Part shown: positions 21,621-44,491 of the stretch, in pieces
How positions within the stretch are numbered: position 1 is the stretch's first letter
How the letters are laid out: each line of letters starts with the position of its first letter
Made by a program: the position numbers and the translations under genes
From: Amphiscolops sp. MND2022
Lineage: Eukaryota
Direction: 5' to 3'
Length of the DNA stretch: 64,000 nt
Assembly: GCA_964187785.1 (NCBI GenBank)
Contig: OZ076409.1
Location: 43,836,001-43,900,000, forward strand
Notes under the pieces: generated by a model
What the model was told of the DNA's origin: nothing
Databases searched by the model: none
Seen by the model: only the letters and a program-made list of their open reading frames with translations

Positions 21621-22525
21621 GAAGTTACAAACTTATAGAATAGGTCAAGGGAAACTTTGAGTTCGCTTGTCTGTAAAAAACTCCGTAATAGTGCATTATT
21701 TTCGAACCTCCTCCTCAATGGAAGGCAGCATTTTTCGAATATACAGTCAAAGTTTCAGATATAGAGTTCTGGGTCACCTCCCCTCCAACTTCGACCTCCA
21801 CCTTGGTGAAACGCAATTGAAATTCTGTATGTAGGGTCAAAGTTTGGATATAGCGCAATAATTCCGCTCCTCACCTCCTCTTTAAGAAAACGCAACTGGT
21901 TTCGTTTATAGCGTCAATAACATTAAAAGGTTCCTCAAAAACGGTAAATGAGGATTACGTTATATCGGTCAGTGTAGTCTTGGATAGACTCGCATAATCA
22001 ATTTTTCCTGGGCTACCATTGGGAAAGGCCTTAGAAATGCCACCTCTGTGATACGCAAAAATGTTTCTACAAGTCGCCCGCTAACCACCCCTTCTATTTT
22101 CCAGCAAAAACGCTACTCGATGGTCAAGAGTAGCCATTGCACGATGAAAACGCATAGAAAATTATTGAAAAAAGTTTGACACTCTCGATAAATGTCATAC
22201 CATTTTAGAAACAAACACTCCGAGAAAACACTAAACACCTTTTTGTATTGTTGTCGCCTTGTGTGGATACCGAAATCAAACCGACCATTTATTTATAACT
22301 TCGCACGAATACTCACTGAAAACCTCGAAAAGTTTCAGAAAACTTTGATTTTTTTTACAACTTTGCGGTCTTTGAGACATTTTTCTAAGAAACTGCAGAT
22401 GCCATTTTAAAAACGGCTGCTTCTGAATACCGGGTTCAGTTGTTGTTGAATTACGAAAATGCTTGAAAAGTCTACAAAATTTTTCAATTTTAGGAAATTT
22501 TTCGATTTTCCGGTTATCTGAAGTC

Positions 22526-22759
22526 AGTAGTAGGGAAAGGGGGATTTGACGCCAACGCAAGGACGCATGGCGCCTCGCCTCATCGTTCACGCTCCCTCTT
22601 CGGCTTCGACCCCATGCTTCGCCATTCGCTTCGCTCATGGCGACCTTGCGCTAACGTCAAATCCCCCTTTCCCTACTACTTAGGCATAACACTAAACTCA
22701 AGGGCACTCCCACACTCACCCTCACATCACTCACAACATTCTCACGCTAACGTCAAATC
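22526..22759 (+). repeat. Left TIR of Maverick B with internal hairpin (22526..22680)
   Basis: Reverse complement of 39253..39487 with scattered mismatches; 26-bp perfect internal inverted repeat. Confidence 0.95.
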
Positions 22760-22813
22760 GCATAAAAAATTGTTCATCCATTTTAAAGTAAACTAACTAC
22801 ACTAAAATAAAAA

Positions 22814-25800
22814 TTACATCCAAGGAATACTTTCAGTGTTACGTTTTTCGTCAAATGCAGATAAAGAATTCTTAGTCACCTTTTGAAGAAACATATCATA
22901 TTTTCAACAATTTCGTAGTCACCTTTTGAAGAAACATATCATGATTTATAGATTTGATTACAAAATTTTCACACTCTTTTCTATAATCGCCCTCAAACAA
23001 GCATTTGTGATACTCTTCAAACGTAATATTCTTACTCTGAGATTTTGAGATACCTTTCAATTTAATTTCATTTTTACACCCACATTTATAAGAATACGAT
23101 CTACTTCTCAAACAAACAAATTCATCTATCTTAACAATCTCAAAAGTTTCAATTTTAAATTTACCAAGTACCTTTTTATTTACTTCACCAAATAATGTGT
23201 GCTCTCTGCTTAAATTGCTGAAATCAAAGTAATCTCTCAGAATATATAAAACCATAACGATACCTTTCGTGTTAACACTCAAGACAAAACTGTCCGTGTT
23301 GTGAACGATTAACGGATACCCACAAATGAAGTCATGAGATTCTGTTTCTAAGTCATAGACATAATCACTCTTCCTACCTCAATTTACTGCTTTTTGTACT
23401 TTCTCATCACTCATCTTATTACCAATAATTAGTATGAAAACATTGAATTTATCATCTTGCATAGCAATTGCAGTACTTAATCCCTAAGACTGACAGAGAT
23501 AATTCAAACCAGACATTGTAACTTTATTCTTTTGAGACAACGATATATTTTTCTCTTCTCCTTTCGATTCCCATCAGCTACATAGAACCCGATCTGGTAC
23601 CACTTTCTAGTCTCAAGTAATTCATTCAAGATGTAGGATGGAATTCTTTTCTCCTTCTCCTTCGTAAAAAATTCTTCAAACTCTAAAGCCATATTCTTCT
23701 TACCTGAAGCAATTCTACAAACATGATTCGATTCTCTAATATCATAACTTTAAAATATCTCTTTCCAGACTTCATCGGCGTATCGCTTTAACTTCTCAAT
23801 TATTCTAAAATCTAGATTCTTCAAAGTGCAGCAATTCTTCAAACCTGAACTGTAGTTGTATAATCCAGAAGTTCCATCTCCTAAAAAGAATCCTTTAACA
23901 GACATCACTTTCTCTTATAAAGCAGTAGCTTCTGTGTTGTAAAGTTTATCAATAATCTCATCAAACATCACACAAGACTCTCTAAACTCAAAATAATTAT
24001 GCAACAACTCTTCTTCTAAAATCAAATCAATAGGCTTAACCACTTCTCTGTTCTTGTTGAGTAGACTATGATCTTCAGTTACATCAACGATGTTTTGTTC
24101 TAATTCTGAAGATATCTTTCTCAGTCTTATGTCTCATAACCTTCTTGATTTCCCTCCAACCCTCACTGGTCCACACTTGAAGATCCTTAACATCACTGAA
24201 TTTCTTATCGTTTCCCCAAGGAGTTGTAACACTATCGTCTTTATACCAATTTTCATCTCTAACAATCGCATCAATTCTTAAAGTTTTCACATTCCCATTC
24301 TCCATTCTCCTCTAAATTAAAGTTGTATCTCCTGTCACACTATCCATATAGTGGCAAGGTAAATTTTCTTCTCCAAAACATGGCTAAAATATATCATAAT
24401 ACGTTTCATACTTGAACAGCTTGCCCAGTTCCAATACCGAAAATCCAAGACATATTGGTTTGTCCATTAGCACCTCATTCTCTTTAAATGTAAAACTATC
24501 ATTATTCTCATAAGTTTTATGAATCCCACTAAACCCATCTTCTCTTCTTCTTCCTTTTTAATGAACTCGATCTTACTCCTAATTTGCACATTCTCCATTG
24601 ACTTTCCATAAACCGCATTGTTTAATAGTTTGTAAAAATCTTCTTCGAAATCGTTTTTTTTATTTCGTTTCTGAGTATTGAAATTGATATTAATTTTTGA
24701 CCATTTACTCTGTTTAAAAGAATTTACTTCATGAACTTCTTTCAACAGTCATACCCTGTCTCACATAAAACTTCTACATTCTATAATGAACTTGAATCAG
24801 TTACTTCTTCTTATCCGTCTAATCACATATTATCTTCTTACATTTGGTGTGACTCCCCTGCTTCAATTTTTTCATATAGTCAGTAAACTTATCTTGAGGT
24901 GAAAACTTATTCTCTGGACAGAATGGAGAGTTCTTAGCATTCTTTTTTATCTCATCAGGATATTCCAGATCATAGTTTCAGATTCAAGGAAAAACCAACT
25001 TTTCTATCATCTGAAGTGTTCAAAATATCTTCTAAATTAACATTATCAACAAGTTTAATTTCATCATATGGCAAATTCTGACTCATCGCCCATCCATACA
25101 AATTATATACCCACTCAGTATATTTCAAACCACATTCCCAAGTATACCCTGAAAGACTCAGATGATGGAGGGGGTTGACTATAAATTCATTTAATGATAC
25201 CTTTATGAACTTCTCAAACACATCTGCTACTAAATTTACATCAGTTTTCAAATACAACTCAGTCAACTCCTTTCCAGTTTTAATCTTAAAAGTATGAAAG
25301 ATCTCATTTGTCCTTTGAATTTCACCATCCTGAGGTTGTCCATTTTTCAATCTTTTGAAGTAATCTTCTTTTGTAAGATTTGTAATCGGTAAGTTGTAAC
25401 CATCATATGATTTAAAGTATTCATAGGGATATGCTAACTTCTTACTTAAGAACTCACAGTTATTAGAAAAGTCTTTCTTCAAAATAGTCAGCTCATCAAC
25501 TGTTTTAACCAAATCATCTAAACTATTTTGTAGAAATCTATACGAATCTATAAATCTATTACCTCCATATGAAATTGAGATATATTTTTCATTCGTTCTA
25601 GGTATCACATGAAGGGGAATGTTTTCTGGCTTCTTATCAATCAGTGTTATAAAGAACAAGTGACAATCAAAGTTACTGAAATTGTGAAACATAAACGGTA
25701 TGAAAATACTTTGTTCTGTCTCAGATTTATATTGCACACCTCAAATGCAGCTCTCCGATACCTACCATAAAAATGGCAGTGATCTCTGACAGCTCTCCCT

Positions 25801-27339
25801 CCTAAAGGAAGTTCACAAAACCAACAGACTGTACTGTTCTTGAAATCCTCCTCATCTTCTTGACTCGTTACATTATTTTTCTTTGTATTCTTAAAATAGA
25901 AATTCATATTATTCTCGATCTTTATGACTTCATTACCAAACCTTTCAAAATTAATCTCACCAAGACTACTCTGATATCCAGACTGTAGAACATCAATCAA
26001 CTCAGATACTATGTAAAATCTATTACACTTTGGGTTTTGTCTAAAAACAATTTTAGTTTTGTTACCCATTTGCTGCAACTCAGCAATGGTGTTGTCACAT
26101 TCGAAATCACCATATATCCTGATATATAGTGGAATCTTATGAAAGTATTTCTTTTACGTCAAATGACTTTCCTTACTAAGTCTGATAGCTGTGAAATCTT
26201 GCTGTCTACATCTCTCAATATGTTTAACCAGAACATCCTCATTCTTAAAGCAAGTTGGCCATCTACGACAAACGAATTTAGCGTTCTTACTTTCTAAGAA
26301 TACATGTAGTTTCTTAATCATTGCATAATGATTTTTATAAATCAATAAATCAGTGACTGTTTGCGAAATGTTCTCACTAACCTCGATAGGGATCAGTTTA
26401 TGTTTTCAGTTTATCCCCTCTTGATAGAACTGTAACTCAAATATATTGATAGCTAGATTATTCATCCTTCGAAATTGGTGACATCTAAAGTCTTGGAGGG
26501 GAATTCTAACCCATCTAATTAATTTCACCAAAATATCCCCGATAGTTTGAAACTGTTTGGGTGACAGTTCTCAGAAGGGTGAAGGTGAGCTAAGATGCTC
26601 CATAAAAAACAATAGTTATCATCATTTTCAATATTCAAAATAGCAGAACTTCCAAGAGGTATTTTAACATAGCTGCTACCGTCTAGTTCATCAATTTTAT
26701 AGAAGTAGATCGTCATCGATACAATTTTGTAGAACCTCCATCCACTATCTTTCATCTCGAGATTTTCAATCTTCGCACCCGTCTCTTTCTCGACATCATA
26801 CTTCTCAACATCACTCCATGTCAAATTCTGAGTAACCTGTAAACGTATGAATTGTTCTGTCTCTTCTGAAGTCCTTTATCAAAGATGGTGAAATACACAA
26901 CTTGATGTTTGAATTTAAACTGTTTTAGCAATCTTTCAGGGATCTTAGCCATCTCTCTGAAAATATTATTCAGATCGAACAATTCAATGGGAAGGTTATA
27001 TTTAGATTTGATGGTTATCTTGCTATTTAAGTGGTTGGGATGGTGTCGATCAACGTTAACCTCATATTGATGTTCATACCTTCGACTGAAGTAATATGGA
27101 TTTAACATGTGCTCACCAACCTCTTTATTAGAGAGATTGACTTTTGCTCTCGCTAACTTTCTCAATGTTGGCACAGTTCGAGCTTGTTGTGCCCTTTGTC
27201 GTATCGGTTCTTCGAACAAATTTGGAGAAATTAAGAGTGCGTTCGCCTCATGGAGCTTAGATTTGAGATGCTTCGCGAACGATGATCTGTGTATCTGTTT
27301 ATTACAAACGTCACAATGCTTATATTGTGCGTCTTCCAA
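22814..27339 (-). pseudogene. Protein-primed PolB with endonuclease VII-like (DHCH) insert and intein
   Basis: Fragments: N-terminal zinc finger, IYGDFEC, CWFC...VRDHCH, FHNFSNFDCH, FIDSYRF, KLAYPYEY, KTDV, NLYGWAMSQ, KLLNNAVYGK, YMD/TDSF, LGKFKIE, KGISK; many stops and frameshifts. Confidence 0.93.
23298..24341 (-). mobile_element. Intein with LAGLIDADG homing endonuclease in PolB motif C (decayed)
   Basis: Block A SVTGDT after YMD; block B VDVTEDHSL; GFFLGDG (~23873-23893) and GFYVADG (~23571-23591); blocks F/G YVYDLETESHDFICGYPLIVHN followed by extein TDSF. Confidence 0.93.
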
Positions 27340-27418
27340 TTATTATAAAAGGATTTATTCAAATGATTGATTTCAATTAAAGAAACCTAAGCAAATGAGT
27401 TATTGCATTGAGGATTTG

Positions 27419-28075
27419 ATGAATAATGACCTAGTTAAAATCTGTTCCAAATGTGGAATCGTACAACTGAAAATGAATTTTAATAAAAATAGGAGTTGTA
27501 AATGTGGTTTGAGTAGATGGTGTAAAAGCTGTTGTAAAATTTATAACAGAATGTAGTATCAAGAAAACCATTAACATATAAAAAGACATAACGATGAAAA
27601 TCGTGAAAGACATTGTGAAAATATGAAGAGATATCATCAAACAAATCGTGAAAATATGAAGAGATGTTATCAAAAAACTCGAGATCACAGGCGTGAATAT
27701 GAGCATAATATAAGCTAACAGACTCAATCTATAAATTAACAACTAACTTAAGAGCTAGAACAGTTCAAGCATTCAAAGCTCAAAATGTATGTAAGAATAG
27801 TAAAACAGTGGTTATATTAGGTTGTTTTCATTCCTTCTTGAAACATTGGATCGAATTTCAACTTTATGGTGAAATTTGGCATATCAGTCATTGTGTTCCT
27901 ATATTAATAGGAATTCCCAATAATCATAATTTATTCAATGAAGATGAGGTGAGAAAGTGTTTTAATTGGAAGAACCTAAGACCGATGTATTCGAACGATA
28001 ACTCAGAAAAGAGTAATACAATTATATCAGATTCTATTTGTTACAGGAGATTAAAACTATGTATTTCTTAAAGAT
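27419..28075 (+). pseudogene. HNH endonuclease 1 (giant-virus type)
   Basis: ICSKC...WCKSC, LGC...LKHWIEFQ, WHISHCVP, CFNWKNLRPM..DN..K. Confidence 0.8.
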
Positions 28076-28103
28076 CTGGATATAAAACTTTTAACTTCAA
28101 TAT

Positions 28104-29030
28104 TCAAATTTTAATTTTAACTGTAATTTCAACTTTATCTATTTTTTTAATCTTTCTGAATTCTGAAATATAATCTTCGTCTTTGCTTGCGGATTCAGAA
28201 TCTGAAGTTTCTGAATCATCGATGAACTCCTCATCTGAGTTATGTAAAGTTTCATCTTCAGAAATCTCACTCTCTGAATAGATTGTTTCACTGCCGCTCA
28301 TTTATATACAAGAAGAGTTCTTTTGTTATGCATAACCTTTCTTCTTTCATGAAAGTAAGAGCAGTACCAATCAAATCATAGTGATTCACATTCTCATAGT
28401 ATCTAGCCGAGACCAGCCACTTCATCGTTCTCAGGGCATAGTTTCCAGCTTTGTGAATTCCTTCCGTTTCTCTCACAAGGGCATTTGTTTCAGAATCATC
28501 AGGCGTATCATCAAACTTTTTGAGGATTTCTTCTATAACATTTAATTTCTTCTGTGTAAGATATGTTAAGACAGCTGCAAGAACGTCTATTTCATTGGTT
28601 TGAACTGTCAATTTAATCTCCTCTCGGCAGATAGCTATTATTTAGGGGGTTGCATATGTCAATCTTCCTTCAAAATTGACAATCTTCTATCTTTGGGTTT
28701 TTGTCAATTGATTCTTTGTTTTTATAACATTAAATTCACAGACTAAACAAGTGAATTCATACTCATACTCAAAATAGAGCATTCCTATTACATCTCCTAC
28801 ACAAGGTAGGGCTACCAGCAACATCTTCCTCCACTATTTCGTTAGAATTCGAAGAGATCCATGATCAAGCTCGATTACATTCATCTTTTTCTCTAGTTTA
28901 ACACCATTCATAACTTCATCTTTTGTTTTCAATGACTTTGGAGGGGATTTTTCTCTCAAAACATTTCCTCACTGATAATGTATTTTGGATTGTTGACTTC
29001 AATGTAAAGTTTATTAGTTATGTACTTCAT
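28104..29030 (-). pseudogene. Cluster of three small genes homologous to element A 1690..2585 (acidic protein, zinc-ribbon protein, 65-aa protein)
   Basis: Alignable at nucleotide level with element A, in the same order. Confidence 0.85.
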
Positions 29031-29034
29031 TTAT

Positions 29035-29898
29035 TATATATTATTTACTTGAATTAAAATTTCAATTTTTTAATTACAGTTTCATTTTCATCTAATGTTA
29101 ATTTACTCTTCTTCAAAAAAACTTCGTTATAGCGTTCAAGTAAAAAATCAATATGATAACCGGTATGATATTGTCAATAATTTCAGTAATTGTGTAGAGT
29201 TTATAGCTCCAGTTTGTTGAATCTTCCTCAGAGAAAATACTTCTCTTTTTCTGCTGTTCTAACAAAGTCTCCTATTTCGTATTTTGGTTTTCGTTTGTTT
29301 CTTTTGTCCCGTAGAATATTATATATTTCCTCTTTTTTTGAAGCATCTATTGGAGTCATTTTTTTGAATGTTGAATGGTGTTATAATTTTTCTTTATAAC
29401 TAATGGAAGTTCATCTAACCAATTACAATTACTTTTCTCAAAAACAGGTTTTTTCAAAAAATTTCTAATTGTTCTATTAAACCTTTCAGCAAAAACTGTT
29501 CCTTTATCGGTATAACGATTATTTTTTTTATTATCATTAACTTTTAGAAAATCATTAAAGGTTCTATTATCGAATTCTTTGCCATCATCTGTTTCTATTA
29601 ACTTTGGTTTTCTCTTTGATTTGTTTATAATGTTGGAAACTTCATCAGTTATCGTTTGAGCGAATTTATTTTTCAATGTAACTACCCATCCAAATTTACT
29701 AAATTTGTCTATAACTACTAAGAGGTATCGATAACCTTTGTTGTTTTTAGATCCATAATCAACAATGTCTAGTAGGTCCATACTCGAAGTATCATCATTG
29801 TGTTTCACTATTATTGTTTTGTTTGTGAGATAGTACTTTTTAGGTGGATTAGCATAGATTTCATGGATAAAAATGTCAATCAGAGATTGTCTCACCAT
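29035..29898 (-). pseudogene. rve integrase
   Basis: SMDLLD, ETDDGKEF, AERFNRT; frameshifted C-terminal part (KPKYEIGDFVRT). Confidence 0.9.
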
Positions 29899-30640
29899 TT
29901 AACTTTTCGAAACAATTTGCTTTAGTCTCTCTAGTAGATATAACCAAAGATCTATTTTGGCTCCTTTTGACAGATTTTCTTTAGATCGCCGTGGTCTCAG
30001 TTTAATCCATCAAAAACAACTTTTGAGTTCAGCTTCATTGAACAGGTTAAAGGAAGATATAGGAAGACAATGGTAGATGTACCATACTCCACCATAATTT
30101 TCAATTGTCATCTCATCGAAAAGCTGAAATTCAATCCATCGCTTAAGAAACTGTTGAGAACAACCTGACAATTCAAATGTTTTGTTATCCCTTTTCACAT
30201 TCTGTTCTTTAAAGGCTTCTCTTGTTCTGTTTTGCAAGCTACAAACCAATTTAAATAAAGGATCAGTTTTTCTTCTACGATAAAACTCTCTGTATTATTC
30301 ACATTTATGGTAATTAATACAATCTTTACAATTTCTTCTAACACCTAATTCAGTATCTTTTCTTCTAGTGAAACATTCAATTTTTTTTACAATTTCACAA
30401 AATCTATCTTTTAATTCTTTTAATTGAAAAACCCACTCATACTTTTCTGGTTTTTGTTTCTTTAACTGTTTCTCTCTTTCATAGGTACAAGTTTTTACAA
30501 GCGTTTTCGTAACGGTTATTGTCTTTTCTAATACTGAAGTTAGAGATTACACCAACAACTCCACACTTACTACACTTCTTGACTAGATTATAATCGAATA
30601 AATCCCTAATCGAAAAACTCTTTTACTTGATTTCATTCAT
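29899..30640 (-). pseudogene. HNH endonuclease 2
   Basis: Two CxxC modules, TDPLFKL, GCSQQFLKRWIEFQ, ENYGGVWYIYHCLPISSFNL, CF.W..LRP...ENLSKG. Confidence 0.82.
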
Positions 30641-30659
30641 CGTCGTGGATGTAAAAATA

Positions 30660-31235
30660 GACCTTAACCTGATGTGAGTGTTCCAATCTTAACAGCTCCT
30701 CATTCCCACTAACAAATCAACCAGCTTGCATAGCAGAAGATAACATTGCTTGAGGATTTCTAGAGCTCACACTCGCTCCAAATTGAGAAGCAACTTTGAA
30801 AGCTCTCATGGGATCGTGTAATTTTGTTACCATTATCCTTACCTAAAGGCTTCAAACCTTTCTCCCTAACATTCTTATAAAATCTCTTGATACTATCGCC
30901 CTCGAGATTACGTTGTTACGTAGTATAAGGTAAAGACTTTTTCCATAGCACGAATGACAATACCCTCGCGGAGGAATAGATTTCCAGATCCTGTCTAATG
31001 ACCATAGGGTCTATCAGATTTTTCATTCCTTCCACATTTGCATTTGGAATTAGCTAAAAAACTAGTACAACGGTTCATTTTTATGAAAGAAATTGACTTT
31101 CAATCCTTCCACATGTTTCACAGATACCTTTATCGAATATAACGATTTTTCCTGTTTTAGAATTGATTTTCAAAGACCTAGTTGAGTTTTCTGTTTCACA
31201 ATGATGTCTTCCGGCTTTACAGAAACTTTTCATTC
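30660..31235 (-). pseudogene. Homologue of core-like protein 8372..8773
   Basis: GRHHCET...KTGK...GICETC and DPMRAFKVASQFGASVSSRNPQAM. Confidence 0.65.
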
Positions 31236-31239
31236 ATTA

Positions 31240-31983
31240 CTAACAAAAACGTTCCTCATAAGTAGGTGGAGCTGAAGGTTCAAAATTGTTTCCATTTTCT
31301 TTGAAGATGAAATTAAATTTAATTTTTATATTTACTTCAATTTTGCAAAAAAAGGCATTGAACGTTTGTATCTGTTCTGCATATATGTTCTCTACAAGAT
31401 CTAGATTACCAAAAATATCCTGGACTGTAAATTTGGTGCTATCCATGATTTCTTTTCTCTCAGTTATGTAATGGTTATAGATACTTTTCACTTCTTCACT
31501 TTCCTTTTCATCAATCTTTTTATCCACCAGAGACTTCTCGAGAGTTTTCTCATATAGAAGTTTAATCATCCTAATGTGATCTCTCGGGTTCCGATAACGT
31601 GATTTCAATCTTGAGAAATATTCATTGGTGAAGAGAACAACCACCGATATCACAAAGCCGGATACTCCCGCTATCGGTACACCAATCTGCGTTCCTACAC
31701 CAGTACTGGCAAGGTACTCCCGACAACTACTCCACTCGCTCCCGCTAAAATTTTTGGGATCGAGATATAGATTTTCTTTTTATTTACAGATTTATATTTC
31801 TTTTTGTAGAATTCGTTATCGATTTCAAGACTTTTGAGAATATTTGCGTCGTCATGGTTTTCTGCTTTTTATTTCAAATCTTTAATTTCACCATCTTTAG
31901 TTTTTACTTTTCATATAGTGGTGTGGACAAGTTCTTGATTTTGAAGGTTGTATGAAGAGGTCTTTATTGTCTACAAATTCCAT
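31240..31983 (-). pseudogene. Hydrophobic-hairpin membrane protein homologous to 3960..4496
   Basis: STGVGTQIGVPIAGVSGFVISVV...KSLVDKKIDEKE. Confidence 0.7.
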
Positions 31984-32280
31984 AGCCTAAAAATCTTTTA
32001 ATGATTTTTGTCTATGAACTTTCTGTAGAGCAATGTCTTTGATTATTCTATAAAATAAACTGTGAGACAAATTGTCTTTTATCTCACTTTCTGTATATCC
32101 AGACTGTTTGAATATACCTTCATCAGTTAAACCTAGATTCCTCCTCATTTCTCTGTTCTTCATAAAACTCATCATTTGTCTTAGTCAATGATTCAATTTA
32201 TCTTTTCTGCAACGATTTCACATGACTTCTCCCTAACCCACATTCTTCAACTAGATTGGGATCTGATAGAAGACAGGTGG

Positions 32281-33715
32281 CTAGGACAATTTTCTTAACA
32301 TCTTTAATTGAAATTATCTGTTCCTCCAACCAATTCATTTATCTAGGAAAATTGTACGATATAATAATGTTAGAGAAAACCATATCAGATTCAATATTAA
32401 AATTTTCATCAAAATAAAATCTTATCCTTTTATCATCTTCTGAAGTCGTTTCTTCCAATAAATCCCAACCATCACTTTGTTCTTTGGCAGGTAAAGTAAC
32501 TTTATCTTTTCATTGATCATCCAGTGTTTGATATTGTAGTCTAAATCGACACATATTGATACCATATGTATGATACCAAAGTTTGACCTTTATAATGTTT
32601 TGATGTTTAGCATATGTAATATGAGCATATCTATTGACACCATTATTTGGAGTAAATGCTTCAATGAAAGCTTGGTGGTTACCAATTGGGGGTAGAGTTT
32701 CGGGTCCCATTCCCGTTGAGGCGGTATTAGAATCAGAAGCTTTGAAAAATCCAGCAAAAGAGGTCATTCCAATAGCAAGTTCTAGATCACAGTCTAAATA
32801 TAAATCTGTTCCAGTATTGTTTGTGAATTCCAGTATCATTTGAAGTACATCATATACAAAATTATCAACATATTGTTTTGTAGCAAGTGGAAAAGATAAT
32901 TTTCCACTCGTTGTTTTGATGATTAAGGGAACGATATTGGATGTGTCTGATACCAGACTATCCTGTTTCAATCCACTATCAACATACTTCTTGTTTACTA
33001 CATCACTATCATTTATGGGGTAATCCACATTTGTATTTATATGGTTATTAAATCATTACCTCTATCTGTTCAATCTAAATTTGTATTTAAAGGGATTTAG
33101 AAAATAGTTTTAGGGGTAGTCAAATTACTTTCTAATGTAATATAGTCTTTTCCATCAAGATTTAGTTTTTCATCTTGATGTAATCTCAAAAGAGAAAACT
33201 CATCATTACTTGTTGTTACAAATTCACTAACAACAGATTTGGGTACTATGTTATCAATTTCATAGTCATTAAAAATTGTTTAGTAGGATCTATGTTAAGA
33301 GAAAACACAGGGTTTACTTTATTGATTTTAACGAAAGAACTTTCATCTATTAAAGTATCAGTATATTGTTTAGTTGATAATTCTAAATCATATTTCAGAT
33401 CTCTATCCACGTAAACACTTTCGCAAACCAAAATTGTTTTACCAATAAAATTATTCTTTTTATTTGCTCTCACAGTTGTTGTATTGTCAAATTCACTATT
33501 GGGGACTGAGTCAAGTGTTTTGCTGTCTACATAGTGTTTTGTAGCAGGATCTTGAATAACTGTTGGATTTGGAAGATTTATTATTTTAAACTGATTTTCA
33601 TATCAATAACTTCCTCAAGGTTTCATTCGCAGTAGTTAGCTCGGATGTATGTTTTGGTTACTCCAGAAGCACTCGCTGAGGTGCTAGAAATCGATCTTCC
33701 GAATTTATCTGTCAT
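32281..33715 (-). pseudogene. Fibre/spike-like protein with repeated (A/V)xKxYVD motifs
   Basis: MTDKFGR start; PATKHYVD, STKQYTD, VNKKYVD and ATKQYVD repeats; beta-rich C-terminal domain. Confidence 0.65.
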
Positions 33716-34124
33716 TTATTATCTTCATAATTGTTCTATAAAAACTATTGTCTTGCATGAGAAATAAGAAGAAGAGGCAGTAACTCGCACAGTTAGCATC
33801 GTTTATGTTCTGTATCGAGTTCGATGAGATGTAGCGTTCGCAGAAGTTTTGGGGATGACGTTCTGCAAGCTGGTTTGAGATTATTCTTGGAGGCTCTGCA
33901 GAAGCTATCGAAGTATATTTTTTTTGGAAAGCGATCCAGTGGGTACCATTTTTATAATCATCTGTTAAGTTTATACCTCCTTGATTAGAAGTTAATTTAT
34001 CTGTTCGTAGATAGATATTAAAATCTTTTAGACCTAATTTATTGGCGACTTCTAATATCTTAGCGCTCGATGTCGATTCTTTTTTTAAATTGTGTCTTTT
34101 CATGAAGTTGTTTAAAGTACTCAT
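33705..34124 (-). pseudogene. Adenain-like protease
   Basis: GTHWIAF and IQNINDANCASYC; the Asp motif region is locally frameshifted. Confidence 0.85.
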
Positions 34125-34350
34125 TTACATTCCGGAAAAAGAGGGGGGTTTTCCTTCTTCTTTTCGTGACTGTGTTTTTTTTGGTTTTGTGATCTCCGAC
34201 AATCACAATTCACATATCGGCAGTTTGTACAAATCTCTTTTTCAAAGGAGCTCATATCCATTTAATAGGTTGACTTCTCGAGCTTTTCTGAAAGGATATT
34301 CATCAATTCATTTACCAAGATAGCATGTTGTTCATTCATGTTTATTTGAA

Positions 34351-35626
34351 TTAGACGAGATCGAAGTGCCTTGCACCATCACTTGAAACGCTGATAATTT
34401 TCTGAGTTAAAACTAGAGTTACAGCTTGATAGTTGTTGGCAACAACATCAACACCAGCTCTTAATTCAAAATTCACTCTTATTGGCTGAGCAGCTGGGTT
34501 ATCTCTCTGAGCTCTGAGATCTAATACATAAAGATTAAACAGCTCTTTAAAATCTTATGTAGGGACTAACTTCTCCCTTGATGTAATCTTTGTAAAACCT
34601 TCGAACTTCGTTGTAAACCTCATTATTTTTATTTCTCTGATAATCAATCTGAAATTCATGATCGGGGTATCTCACACACCCGACAATGCAAGTAGCTTCA
34701 ATGACATCTAGTCGGTCAAAGATTGCGTTATACTGATCTTGATCTGGTCCAGTTCTCGCAGCTGATTGAAATCCAACGATAACAAATATAGGTACGTCAC
34801 TACTACTCTCAACACCAATCTCCATCATCCAATTGTTGTTCGAGTTCACAGGTTTATAGCTAATCATCCTTGAAACATATGAATGCTCAGTATTCTTCTT
34901 AGCGAGAATGTGCTAAGATATTGTCGAAAGAGATATTGTCAAACGATGGCGTGTCAAGTCTCACGTACCAGACGATATCTTTACTTTCAAGTTTGGGTAC
35001 ATCACCAATTGTTCGATATATGCTGTTCCCGCTGTCAGCTCGCTTCATTCTGAGGGTAAAACCTAAACCAAAGTTTCATTTATCCAGATGTCTTATCAAT
35101 CCAAACACATCTTTCAGATAAACTCTGGTGAAGATCGTTCCTTTTTCGTCGTTATCATTAAGCATTCTGTTTTTTTTGATACTATCGATTGCGCATGGGG
35201 TTTCCCTTTTATAGATTATCATCGTATCTTCTTCATTATCAGATAAAACTTCATACATTAGGCTACCAAAATAGACATGATCGACGCGGTCTCTAGTTTT
35301 TTCGAACCAAATGACGAAAAACTCATTTCTCTGAATGAACTTTTCCCGAACAAATTGTTTGGATGAATAGCATCATTATCAGCGTATAACGTATCATTTG
35401 CATTTTCAACTATATGAGTTTCAATTTCTAGATATGAATCTCTTAGATCAGCAAAGACATCTTCTCGTGGTATTAGAATGTTGAAGGGACTCTTTCCATT
35501 TACTGCTACTAGAGATGTTGGGCGATATGGGTCATAATCTGATTTAAGTTTTGTTCCATCAATGACTTCAGGTCTATCAAGTTGGTAGTAGGATGATTGT
35601 GTTATCTCTTCAAATCCGTTCTCTAT
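34351..35626 (-). pseudogene. Major capsid protein
   Basis: IPREDVFADL, YLKDVFG, PIFVIVGFQ, AQPIRV...SSDGARHFDLV*. Confidence 0.88.
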
Positions 35627-35738
35627 TTATGAATTAGAATAAGGTGATTTATTTTTGTAGATCACCGAGAACCCCATTCCAGTTAATCTTCTTAGCTTCT
35701 CATAATTTTACCTGGTTGATTTAGTTTCATTTTCTATC

Positions 35739-36512
35739 TTACGCAAAGGAGTGTTTTGAGTTTTAGAACTTGGGTTGAGAATTACCATCGTCATCCTCCA
35801 TCCAGAACTCTATAGAATCAAGTTTTTGTTTGAATGTATGTTTATAGAGAACGAGGTTGGGTTCTCGAACAACTTTAGCTCCTGGCGGTTCATTTAGAAC
35901 TACGGAGAACAAAATGTTTGAGGGGTATCCGCTTCGCAGAGAACCAATAATACAGTCACACCAAAGGTGAAGTCGGTGTAAGTCGATTATGTTGACCTTA
36001 TTATTAGAGTAAACATATGATTCGGTTAGTATTATAGAAACAAATCCTTAAAGGTCTCTCAAAGTACCAGGTTGAGAAAAATCGATATTAAATCCAAATT
36101 CAAGGTGTATGAAAGAGTGAAAGGTGGCAGTGTTGTTTTCAAGTACTATAGGATTAACACTTAAAGATTTGGCTTCAACTTGAAGTTGTCTAGAGATCTC
36201 ATCATTATTCTATTCAATTCCATAGGCCCCACGAAGAAGGACGAGTACCTTCCAATAAAGTAGCCACTCAAAGACTATGATTTTATTGTTTTTAGATGTT
36301 ATAGTAAAAATAGAGATGTATGTGTTAAAATATGAGACACCAATTACGTAAGTGCCATCTGTTAGATCAATGCTATCTTGAAGGTCGATCTTAATGTGAT
36401 TTGTTTCATATTTAACTTCTAAAGGTATTTGAGGTAGAGGGCGACTATTTTTTTCCATTTCAGTCAATATCTTTTCCCTTTACTCAATAAAAATCTTCAT
36501 TACTTTTTTCAT
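35739..36512 (-). pseudogene. Minor capsid protein/penton
   Basis: HLWCDCIIGS, PPGAKVVREPNLVLYK. Confidence 0.8.
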
Positions 36513-37330
36513 ATTCAATTTCTGTAGTCTGTTTCATTCTTTAAAGTTCTTGTAGTACGCCTGAAGCTTCACGAAATGCGTTTGATTTACCTGTCAGTGA
36601 TTCTCCTACGAGGACTTCAAATCGTTCATCTAAAACATTTGAAACTGAAGATAGTAAAATGAAGTTCGTACCATCTCCATCAGTTTCTTGAATGTTAGAT
36701 TGTCTGAAGGATTTAAGGATCTTGTATAAGTTAGATCGCCTATCTCGTTCTAAACCACCTGCATAATCAACGAAAAAGTAGAGCGCATCATATTCTTGAT
36801 GGGTGAAATTACTTGAATATAATGTATCACCTTTATGGAATATTTTAAAGAAACTTGGTGATATCCTAAATTCCTTATCATATTTTATTCTGTCATAGTA
36901 AACTTCGAATGGTTTATCATTGATTTTATAGTTATTAAAATCTTTTTTAATAAACTTCGTCTGTTTGTGGGTGTTAGTTTGATTCAAGAGGGAGGATATT
37001 ATGTCAAAAATCTCACCAATAATTACTTTCGGTTGAAGATTATCTTTATGCTCCAATGCTTCTCATGTTGGAGATTTTTTTGCAGGTGTAGTGATTTCTT
37101 CTAACATTTTTGTTTGGTCTTTGATGGCTCTCGTTTGGTCTGCTTGACCTTTTTTGGTAACTTCAGTTTGATTTTCTTGAAGTTTCAAGATTGGTGCATA
37201 TTCTTCTGCTAGATCATAGTTAAGGGTTGCTTTTGAATCTTTCTGTTCAGTCTTTGTTTTTTGATCCCTTTTCTTCGATTGATGAGTCTTTTCAATTTAT
37301 CAAGTTCTTCTATATTCTTTGGTGTGTAGA
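36480..37330 (-). pseudogene. Homologue of conserved Polinton protein 7436..8356
   Basis: YDLAEEYAPI and ILLSS.SNVLDERFEVLVGE...G.SN. Confidence 0.65.
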
Positions 37331-37339
37331 ACCTAATTT

Positions 37340-37885
37340 AAAAAACCTAAAATATTCATACTCATAAAGTTTTTCATTTTGGATGGTTAAATAGTGCTCA
37401 AGGTAATTTGCACCCTTCTTACGATTATCATGTTTTAAAAGGGGTTGGATACTCGAAAAACGAGTAGCTTCTTTATATTGATTGGGATCTGTTAGATCGA
37501 ATGATGATAGAGATCAAACGTGGTCGAGATCTATTTTCTTCCAAATCATATCGGGACTCATTAGATATTTTAAGTAGTTTTTGCATTCTTCGAACGAAAT
37601 TCCCAGTAACTCTTCAGTTTTGGAATTCTTTTTAATTACTTGTTTTAGTACTGCTTGATATAATCGTGAGCACAAAGTACATGCTATTCTAAAAGTTTCA
37701 TCTTCGGCTCTTCTTCTCTTCTGGTTACGATTGCATTTTTCGCGATTGTTTTTCAACCATTGGGATGCTTGGAAAGAATTGCATCTCTTGCAAAGAGAGT
37801 GAAGATTATCCTTTGACCTTGAGTTCTTGTTGAAGTCAGTAGAATATTTTTAAACTTCACACTTTGAGCACTTTTTCAAATCCAT
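37340..37885 (-). pseudogene. HNH endonuclease 3
   Basis: KKCSKC...LCKRC, KTEELLG, IDLDHV.SLSSFDL, IQPLLKHDNRKKG. Confidence 0.82.
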
Positions 37886-37914
37886 ATTTATTATAAAATG
37901 ATAATTTCAATAAA

Positions 37915-38645
37915 ATGGATCGCTAGAAGGTAGAAAGAAAACGAAGATTTTGGCGGTACTTGCCATCATCTTTTTTTCGTCAAATCAATGGTTATGAAGT
38001 TGAAGTCTTCGCTCCATACAATGTTGCAAAAATCTTTGAATTCCTTTATTAGCATATCAGTTGATGTTAATTGACGATGTATGCTTTCGACGTTTGCAAA
38101 ATTATTTGTGATGAAGTGATGGATGATTGTAGAGTTTTCTCGAATAGTATCTTTGGGATGTTCGTAGAAGCCATGAGTGATGACGAAGGTTGAAAGGTTA
38201 TTGTATTTTGAATAACATCTGTACTCTTTCATCGTTTAACTGTGGCTTCTTCAAGTCGTCGAGTATAATTACGTTGTGAAGATCTGGACCGTAATCTTGA
38301 GCGTTTTTCAATTCGTTATTGTCTTCATAACTTTCACATTCTATTTGTTATGATTCGAAGTCTTCATCAATAATAAATTCTTTTATTGTTCTGTCTAATT
38401 CATCAAGAGGTATGCCTTCTCTGAGAATATTTTGTATGACATTCAAAGGAAGAAATTTGTTGAAGCACCCAATTATCGTTCTGTAAACTGGTTCATGAAT
38501 CGTTGAAAAAATAAATGAAAATCTAATCAAAGTTTTTGATGATGTTGAGGAGAATCTTGAAAAAAGAATTGATTTTCCCACTTGCTGATTAACCTGAGAT
38601 AATACAGCGCACAGGAGGTTCAAGGTAGAGATATTTTTCCATCAT
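37915..38645 (-). pseudogene. Packaging ATPase
   Basis: RCIISG.SASGK (Walker A), IILDDL (Walker B), PKDTIRENS. Confidence 0.85.
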
Positions 38646-38652
38646 TTATGTT

Positions 38653-38991
38653 TTAGAAATGTGTGGTGGTCTCGTTGGTTGTATCTGTTGTTGTTGTAGA
38701 TGTTTCATTGGGTGTACCTGTTGTTGTAGCTGTTGTTGTAGATGTTTCATAAGGTGTACCTATTGTTGAAGCTGTTGTTGTAGAGGTTTCATTGGATGAT
38801 TGTGTTGTTGTAAATGTTTCGTTAGTTGTACCTGTTGTTGTAGATGTTTCATTAGGTGAAAGTGTTGTTGTAAATGTTTCGTTAGGTGTACCTGTTGTTG
38901 TAGATGTTTCATTTAATGTATTAGTTAGAAATATAAAGATAATTGGTGAGAACATTGTCAAGATTAAGATATTAAAAATGAAAAACGCCAA
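38653..38991 (-). CDS. Signal-anchored Thr-rich mucin-like protein with NET repeats
   Basis: Hydrophobic N-terminus followed by ~30-bp repeats (NETSTTTGTP); start codon uncertain. Confidence 0.6.
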   Translation of the reverse strand: MAFFIFNILILTMFSPIIFIFLTNTLNETSTTTGTPNETFTTTLSPNETSTTTGTTNETFTTTQSSNETSTTTASTIGTPYETSTTTATTTGTPNETSTTTTDTTNETTTHF

Positions 38992-39252
38992 CAGAAATTG
39001 TATTAAAAGGGGGTGTTCGTTTCAAACTTTTTCGTTTTTATAGATTAAAATGTTTATTTTATGTTTGACTAGAAAGGATATGTTCATTTAGTTTTTCCTC
39101 AATCTCATCTCCCTTTGCTTTTGTTCTTTGAAGGTTTGCAATTGAAACAATTTTTTATAAAAGTCTGTGATTGGTTTGTTTATTTTGCAGGTTGTGCAAG
39201 ATTTTGTTTAAATATTTAAAAGAAATAGTTTTTTGCTCAATTAATTGTTGGG

Positions 39253-39487
39253 GATTTGACGTTAGCGCGAGAATGTTGTGAGTGATGTGAGGGTGAGCGA
39301 GGGAGTGCCCTTGAGTTTGGTGTTAAGCTTAAGTAGTAGGGAAAGGGGGATTTGACGTTAGCTCGAGGTCGCCATGAGCGAAGCGGATTTCGAAGCATGG
39401 GGTTGAAGCCGAAGAGGGAGCGTGAACGATGAGGCGAGGCGCCATGCGTCCTTGCGTCTGGCGTCAAATCCCCCTTTCCCTACTACT
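39253..39487 (-). repeat. Right TIR of Maverick B with internal hairpin (39332..39487)
   Basis: Inverted copy of 22526..22759. Confidence 0.95.
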
Positions 39488-41525
39488 GAAGTCGTTCTGA
39501 TGAAGATTTTAAGTACCAAATGGTAAATTACTAGTTAACATTCTTATTTAGCATGCTTTCATTTTTGTTTGCCTAATTAAAACTTTTAGAGTTTTACAAA
39601 ACTTCTCAATCAAAACTTTTTGGTGATTTTTAATCAAAAATCACTGATTTGGAAAAAAAATCGCCAACTTTTCAATTTTGCTTCGACTATTTTGGGATCA
39701 TTTTGAGGCTCTTTTCTAACGTGAAACTGCAACTGACCTTCAACAAGCCAAATGAATAACGCGAAAGTGGAACAGATGGAAATTTTACAAAACATCCAAA
39801 AACTTTTTACAAGAAACGATGAAATTGGGTTTCGTCCTTCTTTACTCATACGGATCATTTTGAAGTGCTTTGAAGCTAGCCACTGCATTTCTCCTTCGAA
39901 AACCATACTGTAAAGCTAGTTACCTAGTTTGTTCGTCTTTGGGTGTTTTGAACCTTCTTACCGACAATTATCTCTAGAAATTATACACAAATTGCATGAA
40001 AAACCACAAACTGGGAAGACTTTGTTTTTCCAACTTTTGGGGTGTATTTGAAAAACATCTCTAAGGATAATTTATTCTTGTAAATGCCCAATGGGCAAAA
40101 TTTTTAAATGTCGATGAAACTTTTCAGTTTTCTTCACAAAAGTTTCAAAATTTTGAAAACAAAAATTGCGTTGAAAAACTCAAACGTTTTAAATAATTTT
40201 CACTCTATGTATATTTTGGGGTCATTTTGAGGATATTTTCGAACACGAAACTCCACCTGATTTTCAAAAAGTCTACTCTATTCTGCGTTCGTTTGCTGTT
40301 GAATGTTTTCATTCTTGAATTAAACGAAATTCACGAAACTTCCAACAAAACTTCTTCTTGAAAAACGTTTTGGATTTTCGACCCCTTTGGGTCTTTCTGA
40401 GATAAAGTTCTTCATGGAAATTTTAGAAAAACATACAAATGCGTATTGCATAGCTGGAATATTCGTCTGGAGCTTTGGGACCGTCTACTTCACGAAACGT
40501 TTCACAAACAACCACTAAAACTGTCAAAAATTGGAAAATTTCGATGTTTTCAACAATTTCGGGTCATTTCGAGACAATTTTCAAATACTTCCCACAAATG
40601 CCAACCGTATATCAACAGCAATCCTTGATGAACCATTGTTTTGTTTTAACCCTCGAAACAACTGGAAAAGTTCACAGATTTTGCGCAACCTTCGAACCTT
40701 CTTATTCTCAAAAACTGTACTTTATATAACAAGAAAAGCAAAATAAACTGAAATTTTTTGAATTTTTCTACTGTTTTGGTGTCAATTTGAAGCAAATTAT
40801 TATCAGAAAACTGCATTCTTCCTTTCAAAAAACCTACTGGACAAAGTTTTTTATTCTTCTTTCATGAAAACTCTTGACAATTTGACAAGAAACTTGGAAA
40901 AATTGTGAAGTTTGGAATTTTTGTCAATTTCGGTTGTGATCTGAGACTTTTTTATTGGAACAAAGCGTTTTATTCTTCAAAAAATCCAACCGGACAACAA
41001 ATTATTGCCTAGTTGAACAATTACAACATTCTAAGCTATCGGGTATTCGAAAATTTGACAAAAATTCTATAAAACGTAAATAATCTGAACTTCTTGGAAA
41101 TTTTGCCAATATCGGTCTCAGTTGCAGGCTTTTCCATTAAAAAATTGCATTTTTTTTTAAAAAAAGGCTCTTGGACAACGAATTCTTTCCATCTTGAAAG
41201 TTGTCAGTTTTCGAAACCACGAACTCTATCGAAAAATGGACAAAAGTTGCATAAGAACGGTAAAAATTGGAAAATTGTGCAGTTTCTGTCACTTTTGGGT
41301 TCATCTTTGGGTCTTTCTTGTGTCTTTGGGGTGAACTATAAAAGGCCACAAATCTCTACAAATACATATCGTTTGATACTAATTTCACAATAGTTGAATT
41401 CTTTGGGTGAAACCCTTTAAGTTGGAAATAAACTTGGAACATGACAATTTTTGTTTGAAAAAACACGGTTGATTCAGATAAATTCCTTTCTCATATGAAA
41501 TATGAACGGCAAATAAAAATGTTTG

Positions 41526-42874: not shown

Positions 42875-44491
42875 TATTAAATTCATGAAAAACGCCATTG
42901 GTTATTTTCTGGAATAGTGCTCGAAGATCATTCAGTTTGCTTCATGATAAAAATGTAATAATTATGGATGTTAGAAATTCAAATTTATCAGTTGATTCAA
43001 ACTTTTTGACGAAATACTTCGCTGTTAAATGGACGTTTTTGTAAGTTGAAAAATTTCTCAGAGAATGATTTTCTTCAAATTCTCCGCAACACCGCGTCAT
43101 GGTGGTAAGAATGAGGAAATTCGTGAGTTCTTGCTCCAAATGTTTTTTGTTCCATGGCTTTCACTCTGCATAATGGACTAGAAAACTGACTTTTTTCATT
43201 ACTAACTTCATGTTTCACCCGACACGTATACAATTTTTTCAGAATACATCACGTGACAAGACTATATCAATATTTGACACCTAACAGATATAAGTGTTCA
43301 AAAGCTCCCTCTGTGAAACAAAAGTATTTTGCGGTCATGACCTCGCACTGTTTTTGTGTTGTCTCTTCTTATTTTCTTGGCACTCTAAGTAAAACTACAA
43401 ACGTACTAAGGTTCGATCTTGCCATCACTGCATTAAGTTTTCTTGAGCATTTTTTCTCCTGAAACCTTGGTAAAATGTTGTTCAATCTTGCTTCGTGTAA
43501 ACTTGTTGATTTCTTGAAGAAGGGGAAATTTTCCATGAACAAGAAATCATGTTAGCAGTCTAAGATCCGTGTAGGCAAGCACAGTGGTATCTCCGGTGTA
43601 CCATTCGTATCGAATTGGCTGCTCTTGCAGTGGCAGCCGCTAAACGGCCGGTAGACAGCCGGAGGAAACTTTGCAAGTTTTATACAAAATCATGCAAAAT
43701 TCGTAGTGTGACATCTATGATGTATTTCTTGCCAGTCCAGCATTTCACCTATCTGCTATCAGCACTTATATTTGGTTTGTTTTGACTGAGCTACAGCATT
43801 GCGATTTCAAGACAGATCGTGCCAAAAAGTCCTTCATGCTATGGGAAAATTAACGTAATTCGGATTCAATATTAGAACTTTTTCTGCCATTGCTTGAATT
43901 TATCTCGAAAAGTTTCCACCGGTCTAAACCGGCTGCGCGTCGACGGCTATGCCTAGAAATAGTGACTGATGATCTAAAATTGTCTCCTTAAATTGAATTT
44001 TATTGTTAATCCTTAAACCCGGTTTCATAATTACATATTTGTTCAACTCAATCGCGTCATTTCCCGTGTTGACATTTTCTCTCATTCTCAATAGCTGCAA
44101 AATGCACTAGACCATTTGAAGCTTTGTTTTCACGGTCAACAGTGAAACTTCATTAATAGTTTGTCCATGGATCGGAGCAATCATACTTTATGAATGAAAC
44201 ACTTTAACTCTTAGAGCCTGGAAATTCCACGCAAAGTTTACCTGGAGAAAGATTCAAGATGACAAGTTTGCGAGTCATGCTGCTAATGAAGGATGTCATA
44301 ATTATGTTCACAAATAATCTCCAAAATATCAATAACCAAAGACAACAAACATTTAAACAAAGCCATTCTCATTCAAACGAATAGGTGATCTTTAGTCGTT
44401 GCAAACTCCAACCATTGAGCCACGATTGAATAATTGTAGAAAATAAATACGCGGGGGTTAAATTATCTCTTGAACTTGAACTTACTGAACA

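Follow-up and report, generated by a model that had tools for sequence, protein, structure and literature searches.

Can an intein persist in an animal genome, and if it does, in which gene and by what means? The question is raised by a 64,000-nt stretch of the Amphiscolops sp. MND2022 assembly GCA_964187785.1 (contig OZ076409.1, positions 43,836,001 to 43,900,000; hereafter the window, whose own numbering is used throughout). It holds an integrated Maverick/Polinton, here called element B, whose gene for the protein-primed DNA polymerase of family B (pPolB) is split in catalytic motif C by a 1044-nt insert. The review by Green, Novikova and Belfort (2018, PMC5784728), in its accessible part, holds that metazoan genomes have no inteins, and this absence is used as an argument for intein inhibitors as safe antimicrobials. 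The original prediction, made by a model from the letters of the window, read the insert as a decayed giant-virus-type intein with LAGLIDADG motifs, seated at the pol-c site and carried into an animal genome by a Maverick; it proposed searches with profile hidden Markov models (HMMs), a genome search for intact alleles with and without the intein, and an intein phylogeny. The analysis reported here makes it very probable that the window holds a dead intein copy in motif C of an animal-integrated Maverick pPolB, that living relatives of this copy splice and probably home, and that the intein is of pol-c descent with one crossing into the pPolB lineage.

A dead class-1 intein splits motif C

Three-frame translation and motif mapping place the insert on the minus strand (24341..23298), where it parts ..CHYMD from TDSF.. 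with both junctions in one reading frame. Along that strand, the N-extein ends with ..NLPCHYMD at 24342 and the intein begins with block A (SVTGDT, 24341-24324), followed by block B (TEDHSL within VDVTEDHSL, 24079-24062), the two LAGLIDADG motifs GFFLGDG (23893-23873) and GFYVADG (23590-23570), block F (YVYDLE within YVYDLETESH, 23363-23346) and block G (IVHN, 23309-23298); the C-extein resumes with TDSF (23297-23286). The motifs and the split of YMD-TDS thus lie exactly where they had been placed from the letters alone. The proposed decay is also seen and is more extensive: besides the stop at codon 10, there are four in-frame stops, near 23917 (after ..TAL), 23752 (..EIF), 23486 (..CQS) and 23381 (..AVN), and two frame changes, near 24091 and near 23555. 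As judged from the motif positions and from open paralogues elsewhere in the genome, the copy is a dead class-1 intein (Ser1 ... His-Asn | Thr+1) with a two-motif LAGLIDADG homing endonuclease. Its DNA is 82.5% identical to open inteins of 346-348 codons in the same genome, and its protein pieces are 74-76% identical to those paralogues, which together rule out chance as the source of the insert.

The evidence from HMMs for the identity of the insert comes from the intact paralogues, not from the window copy. In particular, an open copy matches the Pfam families Intein_splicing (PF14890, 41.9 bits against a cut-off of 35.8), Hom_end (32.4 against 21.1), LAGLIDADG_3 (31.1 against 22.5) and DNA_pol_B_2 (53.5 against 25.8), the LAGLIDADG homing-endonuclease families tested being PF14528 and PF05204. 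The open paralogues carry the LAGLIDADG motifs GFFLGDG and GFYAADG. In a 42-row alignment, S1, H90, D255, G256 and N347 are invariant, and T87 and D155 (the latter in the first LAGLIDADG motif) are nearly so; the catalytic set of S1, TEDH, HN and T+1 is present in the window copy and in all open copies. An AlphaFold2 model built on the 42 sequences has a score of 94.7 in the predicted local distance difference test (pLDDT) and a predicted template modelling score (pTM) of 0.93. Searched against the PDB with Foldseek, the model finds 2cw7 first (E 2.7e-17) and then TliVMA, PI-PfuI and PI-SceI, and its nuclease half matches I-DmoI with a TM-score by target of 0.70-0.75. A sequence comparison with the PDB ranks NEQ068 first (E 0.007), which is the N-part of the split polymerase intein of Nanoarchaeum. 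Since the open paralogues pass the Pfam cut-offs and the model matches solved intein-endonucleases, the insert is an intein with a LAGLIDADG nuclease, in agreement with the identity first assigned to it.

Like PI-TkoII (2cw7), PI-PfuI (1dq3), PI-SceI (1vde) and TliVMA (7qsu), the modelled intein combines a two-lobed Hint domain with a pseudo-dimeric LAGLIDADG nuclease; Foldseek E-values to these structures range from 2.7e-17 to 1e-9 and TM-scores by query from 0.4 to 0.64, whereas sequence identity is 12-17%. At 347 aa it is shorter than PI-SceI or PI-TkoII, and any extra DNA-recognition region would therefore be small or absent.

Open relatives of the intein persist elsewhere in the genome

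The intein-bearing Maverick family is alive elsewhere in this genome and is polymorphic for the intein. A DNA search of the assembly (1.07 Gb in 1929 contigs) finds the intein at 34 places on chromosome-size contigs, at least 10 of which carry copies. There are 28 young copies, 95-100% identical to each other, and five old ones, namely the window copy (82%) and four others (78-87%); none of the five old copies is intact, their longest open frames not exceeding 242 aa. Of the 28 young copies, 20 keep the frame unbroken over 1500 nt of N-extein, across the intein and on to the natural stop of the C-extein. In-frame intein lengths are 1038, 1041 and 1044 nt (346, 347 and 348 codons) in 11, 5 and 9 copies, and three copies have frame-breaking lengths. 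One locus holds a complete 1538-aa open reading frame (ORF; protein P0003), beside which lie a capsid gene (PF21738, 74.8 bits), an rve integrase gene (48.2 bits) and a zinc-finger/AAA-like ORF. Genome searches recovered intein-plus as well as intein-minus alleles (the latter described below). One of the old inteins lies in two parts about 18 kb apart (L047 and L048; C13:40391523-40391878 and 40409868-40410540), presumably through a later insertion into the intein.

Selection was measured among the 20 open young copies as the Nei-Gojobori ratio of nonsynonymous to synonymous differences per site (pN/pS). The ratio is 0.16 in the N-extein (pS 0.025, pN 0.0042), 0.13 in the intein (pS 0.083, pN 0.011) and 0.17 in the C-extein (pS 0.076, pN 0.013); within the intein, it is 0.11 for Hint-N, 0.20 for the endonuclease and 0.06 for Hint-C. 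Polymorphisms common to at least two copies comprise 28 synonymous and 13 nonsynonymous changes, and singletons comprise 15 and 24, nearer to neutrality, as expected for decay after insertion. These codon-level patterns indicate that the intein, its nuclease included, has been kept functional in the replicating lineage under purifying selection like that on the exteins.

The host gene belongs to a Maverick integrated in an animal chromosome

The polymerase gene of the window (27339..22896, minus strand) is fragmented into many frame pieces. Its N-extein (24342..27339) consists of at least eight, with 60-74% amino-acid identity to P0003, and contains an N-terminal zinc finger/terminal-protein region, an OTU-like stretch, a weak HNH/Endonuclease_7-like insert, the exonuclease motifs and the polymerase motifs as far as ..CHYMD. 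The C-extein (22896..23297) starts with TDSFVLSVNTKG, the second half of motif C, and runs to a natural stop. In Pfam searches, the window polymerase pieces match DNA_pol_B_2 below threshold only.

Element B spans 16,962 bp (22526..39487). Its terminal inverted repeats (TIRs, about 22526-22759 and 39253-39487) are evident from a 237-nt end at 22524-22759 that returns inverted at 39489-39253 with 94.5% identity; the element starts with AGTAGTAGGG at 22526, and the complement of that start ends it at 39487. The target-site duplication (TSD) GAAGTC flanks it at 22520-22525 and 39488-39493. Between the TIRs, the element encodes on the minus strand, besides pPolB, an rve-type integrase (29225..29898; PF00665, 39.9 bits against a cut-off of 32.6) and a double-jelly-roll major capsid protein (MCP) in four frame pieces (34354..35587), which is 33-50% identical in amino acids to the MCP of the young family; the latter matches PF21738. 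Such a set of pPolB, rve integrase and double-jelly-roll capsid genes between TIRs with a 6-bp target duplication is a known mark of the Maverick/Polinton group. Part of this definition follows the accessible text of Krupovic et al. (PMC11161782). Element B is accordingly an integrated Maverick/Polinton, as predicted, and neither contaminant nor chimera. Among the ORFs of a young Maverick, a candidate packaging ATPase is represented by a weak AAA_14 match (E 0.0031, below cut-off) in the zinc-finger ORF; an Ulp1-like cysteine protease was sought as well, and Pfam finds no protease family in the young-Maverick ORFs examined, several of which have no family.

Element B was compared with the young family at L049-L051. 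DNA identity of about 80% is confined to pPolB and a small upstream ORF (28210-29099), gene order differs, and protein identity is 60-78% for pPolB as against 35% for the integrase and 33-50% for the capsid. Because the polymerase of element B is so much closer to the young family than its integrase and capsid are, the comparison points to an exchange of the polymerase module between Maverick lineages.

The Endonuclease_7/HNH-like stretch of the N-extein (CWFCELPL..DHCH..) lies at 25647-26153 on the minus strand and corresponds to P0003 residues 488-533; it scores below the cut-off here (E 0.002-0.009) and above it in the relatives P0017, P0026 and P0177. Its occurrence in the window and in relatives indicates that this polymerase family has a fixed HNH-type insert besides the intein, which it has in common with the pPolB2 class of Jeong et al. 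(2023). The termini of element B (22526-22680 and 39332-39487) contain a 26-nt internal inverted repeat (22526-22551 against 22680-22655). Young-copy termini (3' flanks of L002-L043) also carry GC-rich short tandem repeats of the AGCGAAGCG kind, whose variable length makes the copies unequal in terminal length.

Wnt-family genes and BEL/Pao retrotransposons are specific to animals. The assembly yields seven Wnt-family matches on four contigs (best 163 bits), and a BEL/Pao retrotransposon adjoins the intein copy used as the young reference. With Wnt genes on chromosome-size contigs, this BEL/Pao element and an LHFPL-family gene in the window itself, the host is an animal, as had been supposed.

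Intein-less alleles share the backbone of the intein-bearing ones

Alleles without the intein were sought with the last 600 nt of the N-extein, which gave 164 candidates, the best 40 of which were scored. Outside the intein matches, 14 scored loci have no insert and are colinear with pPolB, and 10 of the 14 are open to the natural stop. Two junctions occur among them: type 1, ..ENIQLHYTD-CDSMVLSIKTED.. (HYTD-CDSMVLS), in nine loci, and type 2, ..ENIQCQYFD-TDAMVLSIKTKD.. (QYFD-TDAMVLS), in five. Junction-specific searches at 95% identity or more raise these counts to at least 15 type-1 copies (among the best 40 of 92) and at least 26 type-2 copies (among the best 40 of 114). Removal of the insert had been expected to restore a colinear polymerase, and these natural alleles indeed read straight through motif C.

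A further intein-less allele belongs to element A, a young Maverick of the same superfamily (1..~13160, minus strand; 97.5-97.8% identical to the young family), whose pPolB is cut by the left edge of the window. The motif-C junction of this pPolB, 2 kb beyond that edge, is of a fourth type, ..HHYTD-CDSMVLSIKTRD.. (CDSMVLS), with no intein and an open frame (L212, 2-5 kb left of the window). Element A stands 9 kb from element B, and its junction looks like a recombinant of the two abundant intein-less types. In type 1 (L021-L029) and in element A, the sequence of motif C is Y-T-D-C-D-S, and Cys takes the place that Thr usually has between the catalytic aspartates; this Cys, at what would be the +1 position of an intein, occurs in at least 15 copies, most of them open.

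Intein-plus and intein-less alleles are 99-100% identical across the upstream 1500 nt, to within 21 nt of the site. Downstream, identity is 71-81% in the first 100 nt, 88-95% from 100 to 300 nt, and 98-100% from 300 nt to the element end, apart from one 83% bin in type 2. The intein-linked C-extein haplotype is found only beside inteins, in all 28 cases, and its next best match is at 91% (best 40 of 124 candidates). Further, the upstream haplotype of all nine type-1 copies is that of several 1044-nt intein copies, and the upstream haplotype of the 1038-nt intein copies is that of type-2-like copies; since upstream haplotypes cross the allele classes, intein presence and backbone have recombined. 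Among intein-plus subtypes, the N-extein is 99-100% identical and the intein 94-98%. Overall, the pattern would fit an old presence/absence and target-site polymorphism on a backbone homogenised by recombination, such as homing with co-conversion and target escape would leave.

The closest relatives are pol-c inteins of RNA-primed polymerases

A search of 5.8 billion proteins with the intein region gave 838 matches, and the best 120 were examined. Six of these are pPolB-type, and the other 114 carry PF00136, usually with PF03104, and are RNA-primed family B polymerases (rPolBs); 117 of the 120 have TD[SC] after the intein, forming the same ...D | TD[SC] junction. In the accessible text of Ogata (2005, PMC549080), YGD|TDS defines the site of the pol-c allele, and the placing of this intein at pol-c is thereby sustained. 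Known pol-c inteins of RNA-primed polymerases (Mimivirus PolB, archaeal PolI position III and the Nanoarchaeum split intein; PMC549080, same portions) interrupt the same Y-x-D | T-D-S point, share the SVTGDTP start and the ..IV[KH]N end, carry the LAGLIDADG domain in the same place and are 35-43% identical. In contrast to them, the intein described here sits in a protein-primed polymerase (DNA_pol_B_2, not DNA_pol_B/exo1), is carried by a Maverick on an animal chromosome and falls in a clade of its own.

The pPolB-type relatives have overall identities of 26-53% to P0003. P0004 is 96% identical, and its 136-member cluster includes forms of 1186-1193 aa, the length expected without an intein; P0026 (61%) is an incomplete sequence on a 4198-bp contig (L132), P0005 is 48% identical, and P0016, P0017 and P0019 are 42-44% identical. 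Pfam confirms DNA_pol_B_2 or the Endonuclease_7 insert in four of the pPolB-type relatives; P0016 shows the intein families only and is placed with pPolB from its 40% overall identity in alignment A1. In P0019, the intein is 43% identical and the exteins 26%, which hints at a later intein transfer among pPolBs.

In IMG/VR, 549 of 596 pattern matches encode an intein relative. Of the best 80 loci, the top 14 and 23 in all are on contigs of giant-virus metagenome-assembled genomes (GVMAGs), in keeping with the predicted giant-virus link; 76 have rPolB exteins, and none has pPolB exteins. A metagenome scan with P0005 alone gave no matches, and one with alignment A1 gave 80 loci, with one pPolB host (L132), 75 rPolB hosts and four loci whose flanks are too short. 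A junction-spanning search of 1.84 billion representatives returned, in its top 150, mostly intein-less pPolB N-exteins, and the junction is truly spanned there only by the short fragments P0149, P0160 and P0166. Matches reaching 35-47 residues past the junction were set aside, as what aligns there with the beginning of the intein is C-extein; P0165 (1319 aa), for one, matches no intein family. The candidates P0197, P0211 and P0276 were likewise dropped, being rPolBs. These three and the rPolB relatives P0009 and P0053 each have two separate intein-splicing matches, that is, two inteins per polymerase.

The proposed phylogeny places the five pPolB-hosted inteins in one clade, with an SH-like approximate likelihood ratio test (SH-aLRT) support of 99 in a 118-row tree and support of 100/99 in a 44-row LG+C20 tree. 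A single switch between the polymerase families therefore suffices.

Splicing, homing and their alternatives

In the living copies, the intein and the polymerase would be translated as one frame; as the intein keeps the two catalytic aspartates apart, the polymerase would function only once the intein had removed itself by protein splicing. Residues, fold and selection suggest an N-O acyl shift at Ser1, transesterification to Thr+1 and Asn cyclisation, which would join ..YMD to TDS. The endonuclease would most likely cut intein-less pPolB alleles bearing the cognate site, and recombination between Maverick genomes, whether these are replicating or chromosomal, would then insert a copy of the intein gene, as the pattern of alleles suggests. 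A pol-c-family intein would have crossed once into the pPolB lineage and then been passed down together with the gene in several of this genome's Maverick lineages. The far greater intein diversity on the rPolB side suggests that the crossing was likely from rPolB to pPolB.

Several points weigh against this account. The window copy is certainly non-functional, and its own pieces carry little of the Pfam signal: the C-terminal piece matches Intein_splicing at 18.1 bits (E 0.0024), below the cut-off of 35.8, the 209-aa middle piece that holds both LAGLIDADG motifs matches no LAGLIDADG family, and the N-terminal piece has no Pfam match, so that the expected HMM matches appeared in the open paralogues but not in the predicted copy itself. 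Expression, splicing and cleavage we infer throughout. The pN/pS sample was picked for open frames and is biased downward somewhat, although this bias is too small to explain ratios this low. The intein tree is unrooted, and on it rests the direction of transfer; of the predicted entry of a giant-virus-type intein into a pPolB lineage, the kinship to rPolB and GVMAG inteins and the single pPolB clade stand, whereas the direction is less firm. Among the best 40 of 124 candidates, none is an intein-less allele that carries the cognate site, the query being the natural intein-linked C-extein haplotype and no search having been made with an artificial intein-free site, and ongoing homing is therefore left without a visible substrate in the assembly. 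Moreover, of the 30 nt around the site, 14 in type 1 and 10 in type 2 disagree with the intein-plus flanks, and the identity of old intein-plus copies to the young family is 77-90% throughout, in the N-extein, the intein and the C-extein alike, which fits vertical inheritance without homing. The mosaic around the site could also stem from ordinary recombination between Maverick lineages.

It is a tentative proposal, one we hold possible but somewhat doubtful, that a living homing intein resides in this animal germline, moves between Maverick copies by endonuclease-triggered gene conversion, is maintained as a polymorphism of presence and absence, and has been escaped by the intein-less alleles through change of the 30-nt target; escape of the target would then account for three junction haplotypes on an otherwise identical backbone. 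Alternatively, and again short of being probable, the intein may be a splicing-competent but homing-dead passenger, inherited vertically since an old entry, with the mosaic at the site produced by ordinary Maverick recombination. The even divergence of the old copies and the missing cognate empty site are as expected of such a passenger, and so is the endonuclease having the highest pN/pS of the three intein parts; element B, which shares only its pPolB module with the young family, indicates that module exchange happens anyway. However, the endonuclease is still clearly constrained at 0.20, with shared changes mostly synonymous, and it retains both catalytic Asp-Gly pairs. Further, the divergent zone is centred on the insertion site, starting 21 nt upstream of it, which general recombination does not predict.

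Homing or passenger, both of these readings have the intein splice. It is very improbable that the insert is instead a domesticated Hint and LAGLIDADG domain that does not splice and is retained in the finished polymerase, perhaps as an accessory nuclease. Some precedent for the idea lies in the HNH and VSR nuclease domains fixed in Polinton pPolBs (Jeong et al. 2023, PMC10748475, accessible portions) and in the Endonuclease_7-like stretch of this very polymerase, but the insert parts the two catalytic aspartates of motif C, the splicing residues S1, H90 and N347 never vary in the 42-row alignment and T87 hardly does, the intein of the open copies is succeeded by Thr+1, and functional-looking intein-less alleles coexist. 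Least probable of all is an RNA-level intron or a contaminant or chimeric assembly of giant-virus or protist DNA, contamination or chimerism having been named beforehand as an outcome that would undo the prediction. Nothing was found in favour of this reading; the nearest non-pPolB relatives are on giant-virus contigs. It is contradicted by a frame that stays continuous across the two junctions in 20 of 28 copies and is under codon-level selection, by exteins that are pPolB and not giant-virus rPolB, by the 6-bp TSD of element B in a 104-Mb contig beside host genes, and by the spread of copies over at least 10 chromosome-size contigs. The evidence of frame, TSD, contig spread and motif C led to the rejection of all three readings, the contaminant, the RNA intron and the domesticated domain.

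Relation to described systems and significance

In the searchable literature, no description was found of a Hint/LAGLIDADG intein in a Polinton polymerase or an animal genome, the early Polinton papers and supplements lying outside that search; the view that no such case had been described therefore holds for the searchable literature and does not extend to the earliest Polinton papers. An intein in a Polinton polymerase may have been mentioned in that early literature. In the accessible text of Krupovic et al. (2024, PMC11161782), 'diverse homing endonuclease domains' in polinton pPolBs are described as 'suggesting ... intein invasions', with reference to Jeong et al.; in the portions of Jeong et al. 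(2023, PMC10748475) that were available, only HNH and VSR domains are reported, and the words 'intein', 'LAGLIDADG' and 'homing' do not occur in that paper. The HNH and VSR domains of pPolB2 in these two sources are, like the intein and the Endonuclease_7/HNH-like stretch described here, nuclease modules in Polinton polymerases; they are fixed and lack a Hint splicing domain, whereas the present insert is a complete intein that is polymorphic for presence. The nuclear inteins of Anaeramoeba (Gallot-Lavallee et al. 2023, PMC10710043, accessible text) likewise occur in many copies in one nuclear genome, with viruses implicated and intragenomic movement. In contrast, the 45-103 inteins of Anaeramoeba, a protist, are spread over many kinds of host protein, and here one allele has been multiplied through a repeated endogenous virus in an animal; the words Maverick, polinton, metazoa and animal do not occur in the text of that paper.

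The present genome is that of an animal with at least 28 near-identical intein genes, 20 of them open over the region examined, in the polymerase of a recently amplified endogenous virus. A pol-c intein allele appears to have crossed between the deeply separated RNA-primed and protein-primed polymerase families at the one motif that they have in common, and this crossing supports the idea that inteins are exchanged between viruses in a common host. The coexistence of intein-plus and intein-less alleles on one backbone offers a natural system for the study of homing, co-conversion and target-site escape in a single genome. If splicing were conditional, it could gate Maverick replication. If the homing reading were true, this parasite of a genome parasite would be the first natural intein system of Metazoa and a natural case in which a site-specific nuclease faces dozens of possible targets on the chromosomes of an animal.

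Neighbouring features

The LHFPL-family ORF of the window lies at 44489-45358 on the plus strand, and a RING-finger ORF lies at 50638-51336 on the minus strand. Beside the reference young copy are the BEL/Pao retrotransposon (L049:109-3894) and a nucleoside-transporter exon (L051:8818-9684).

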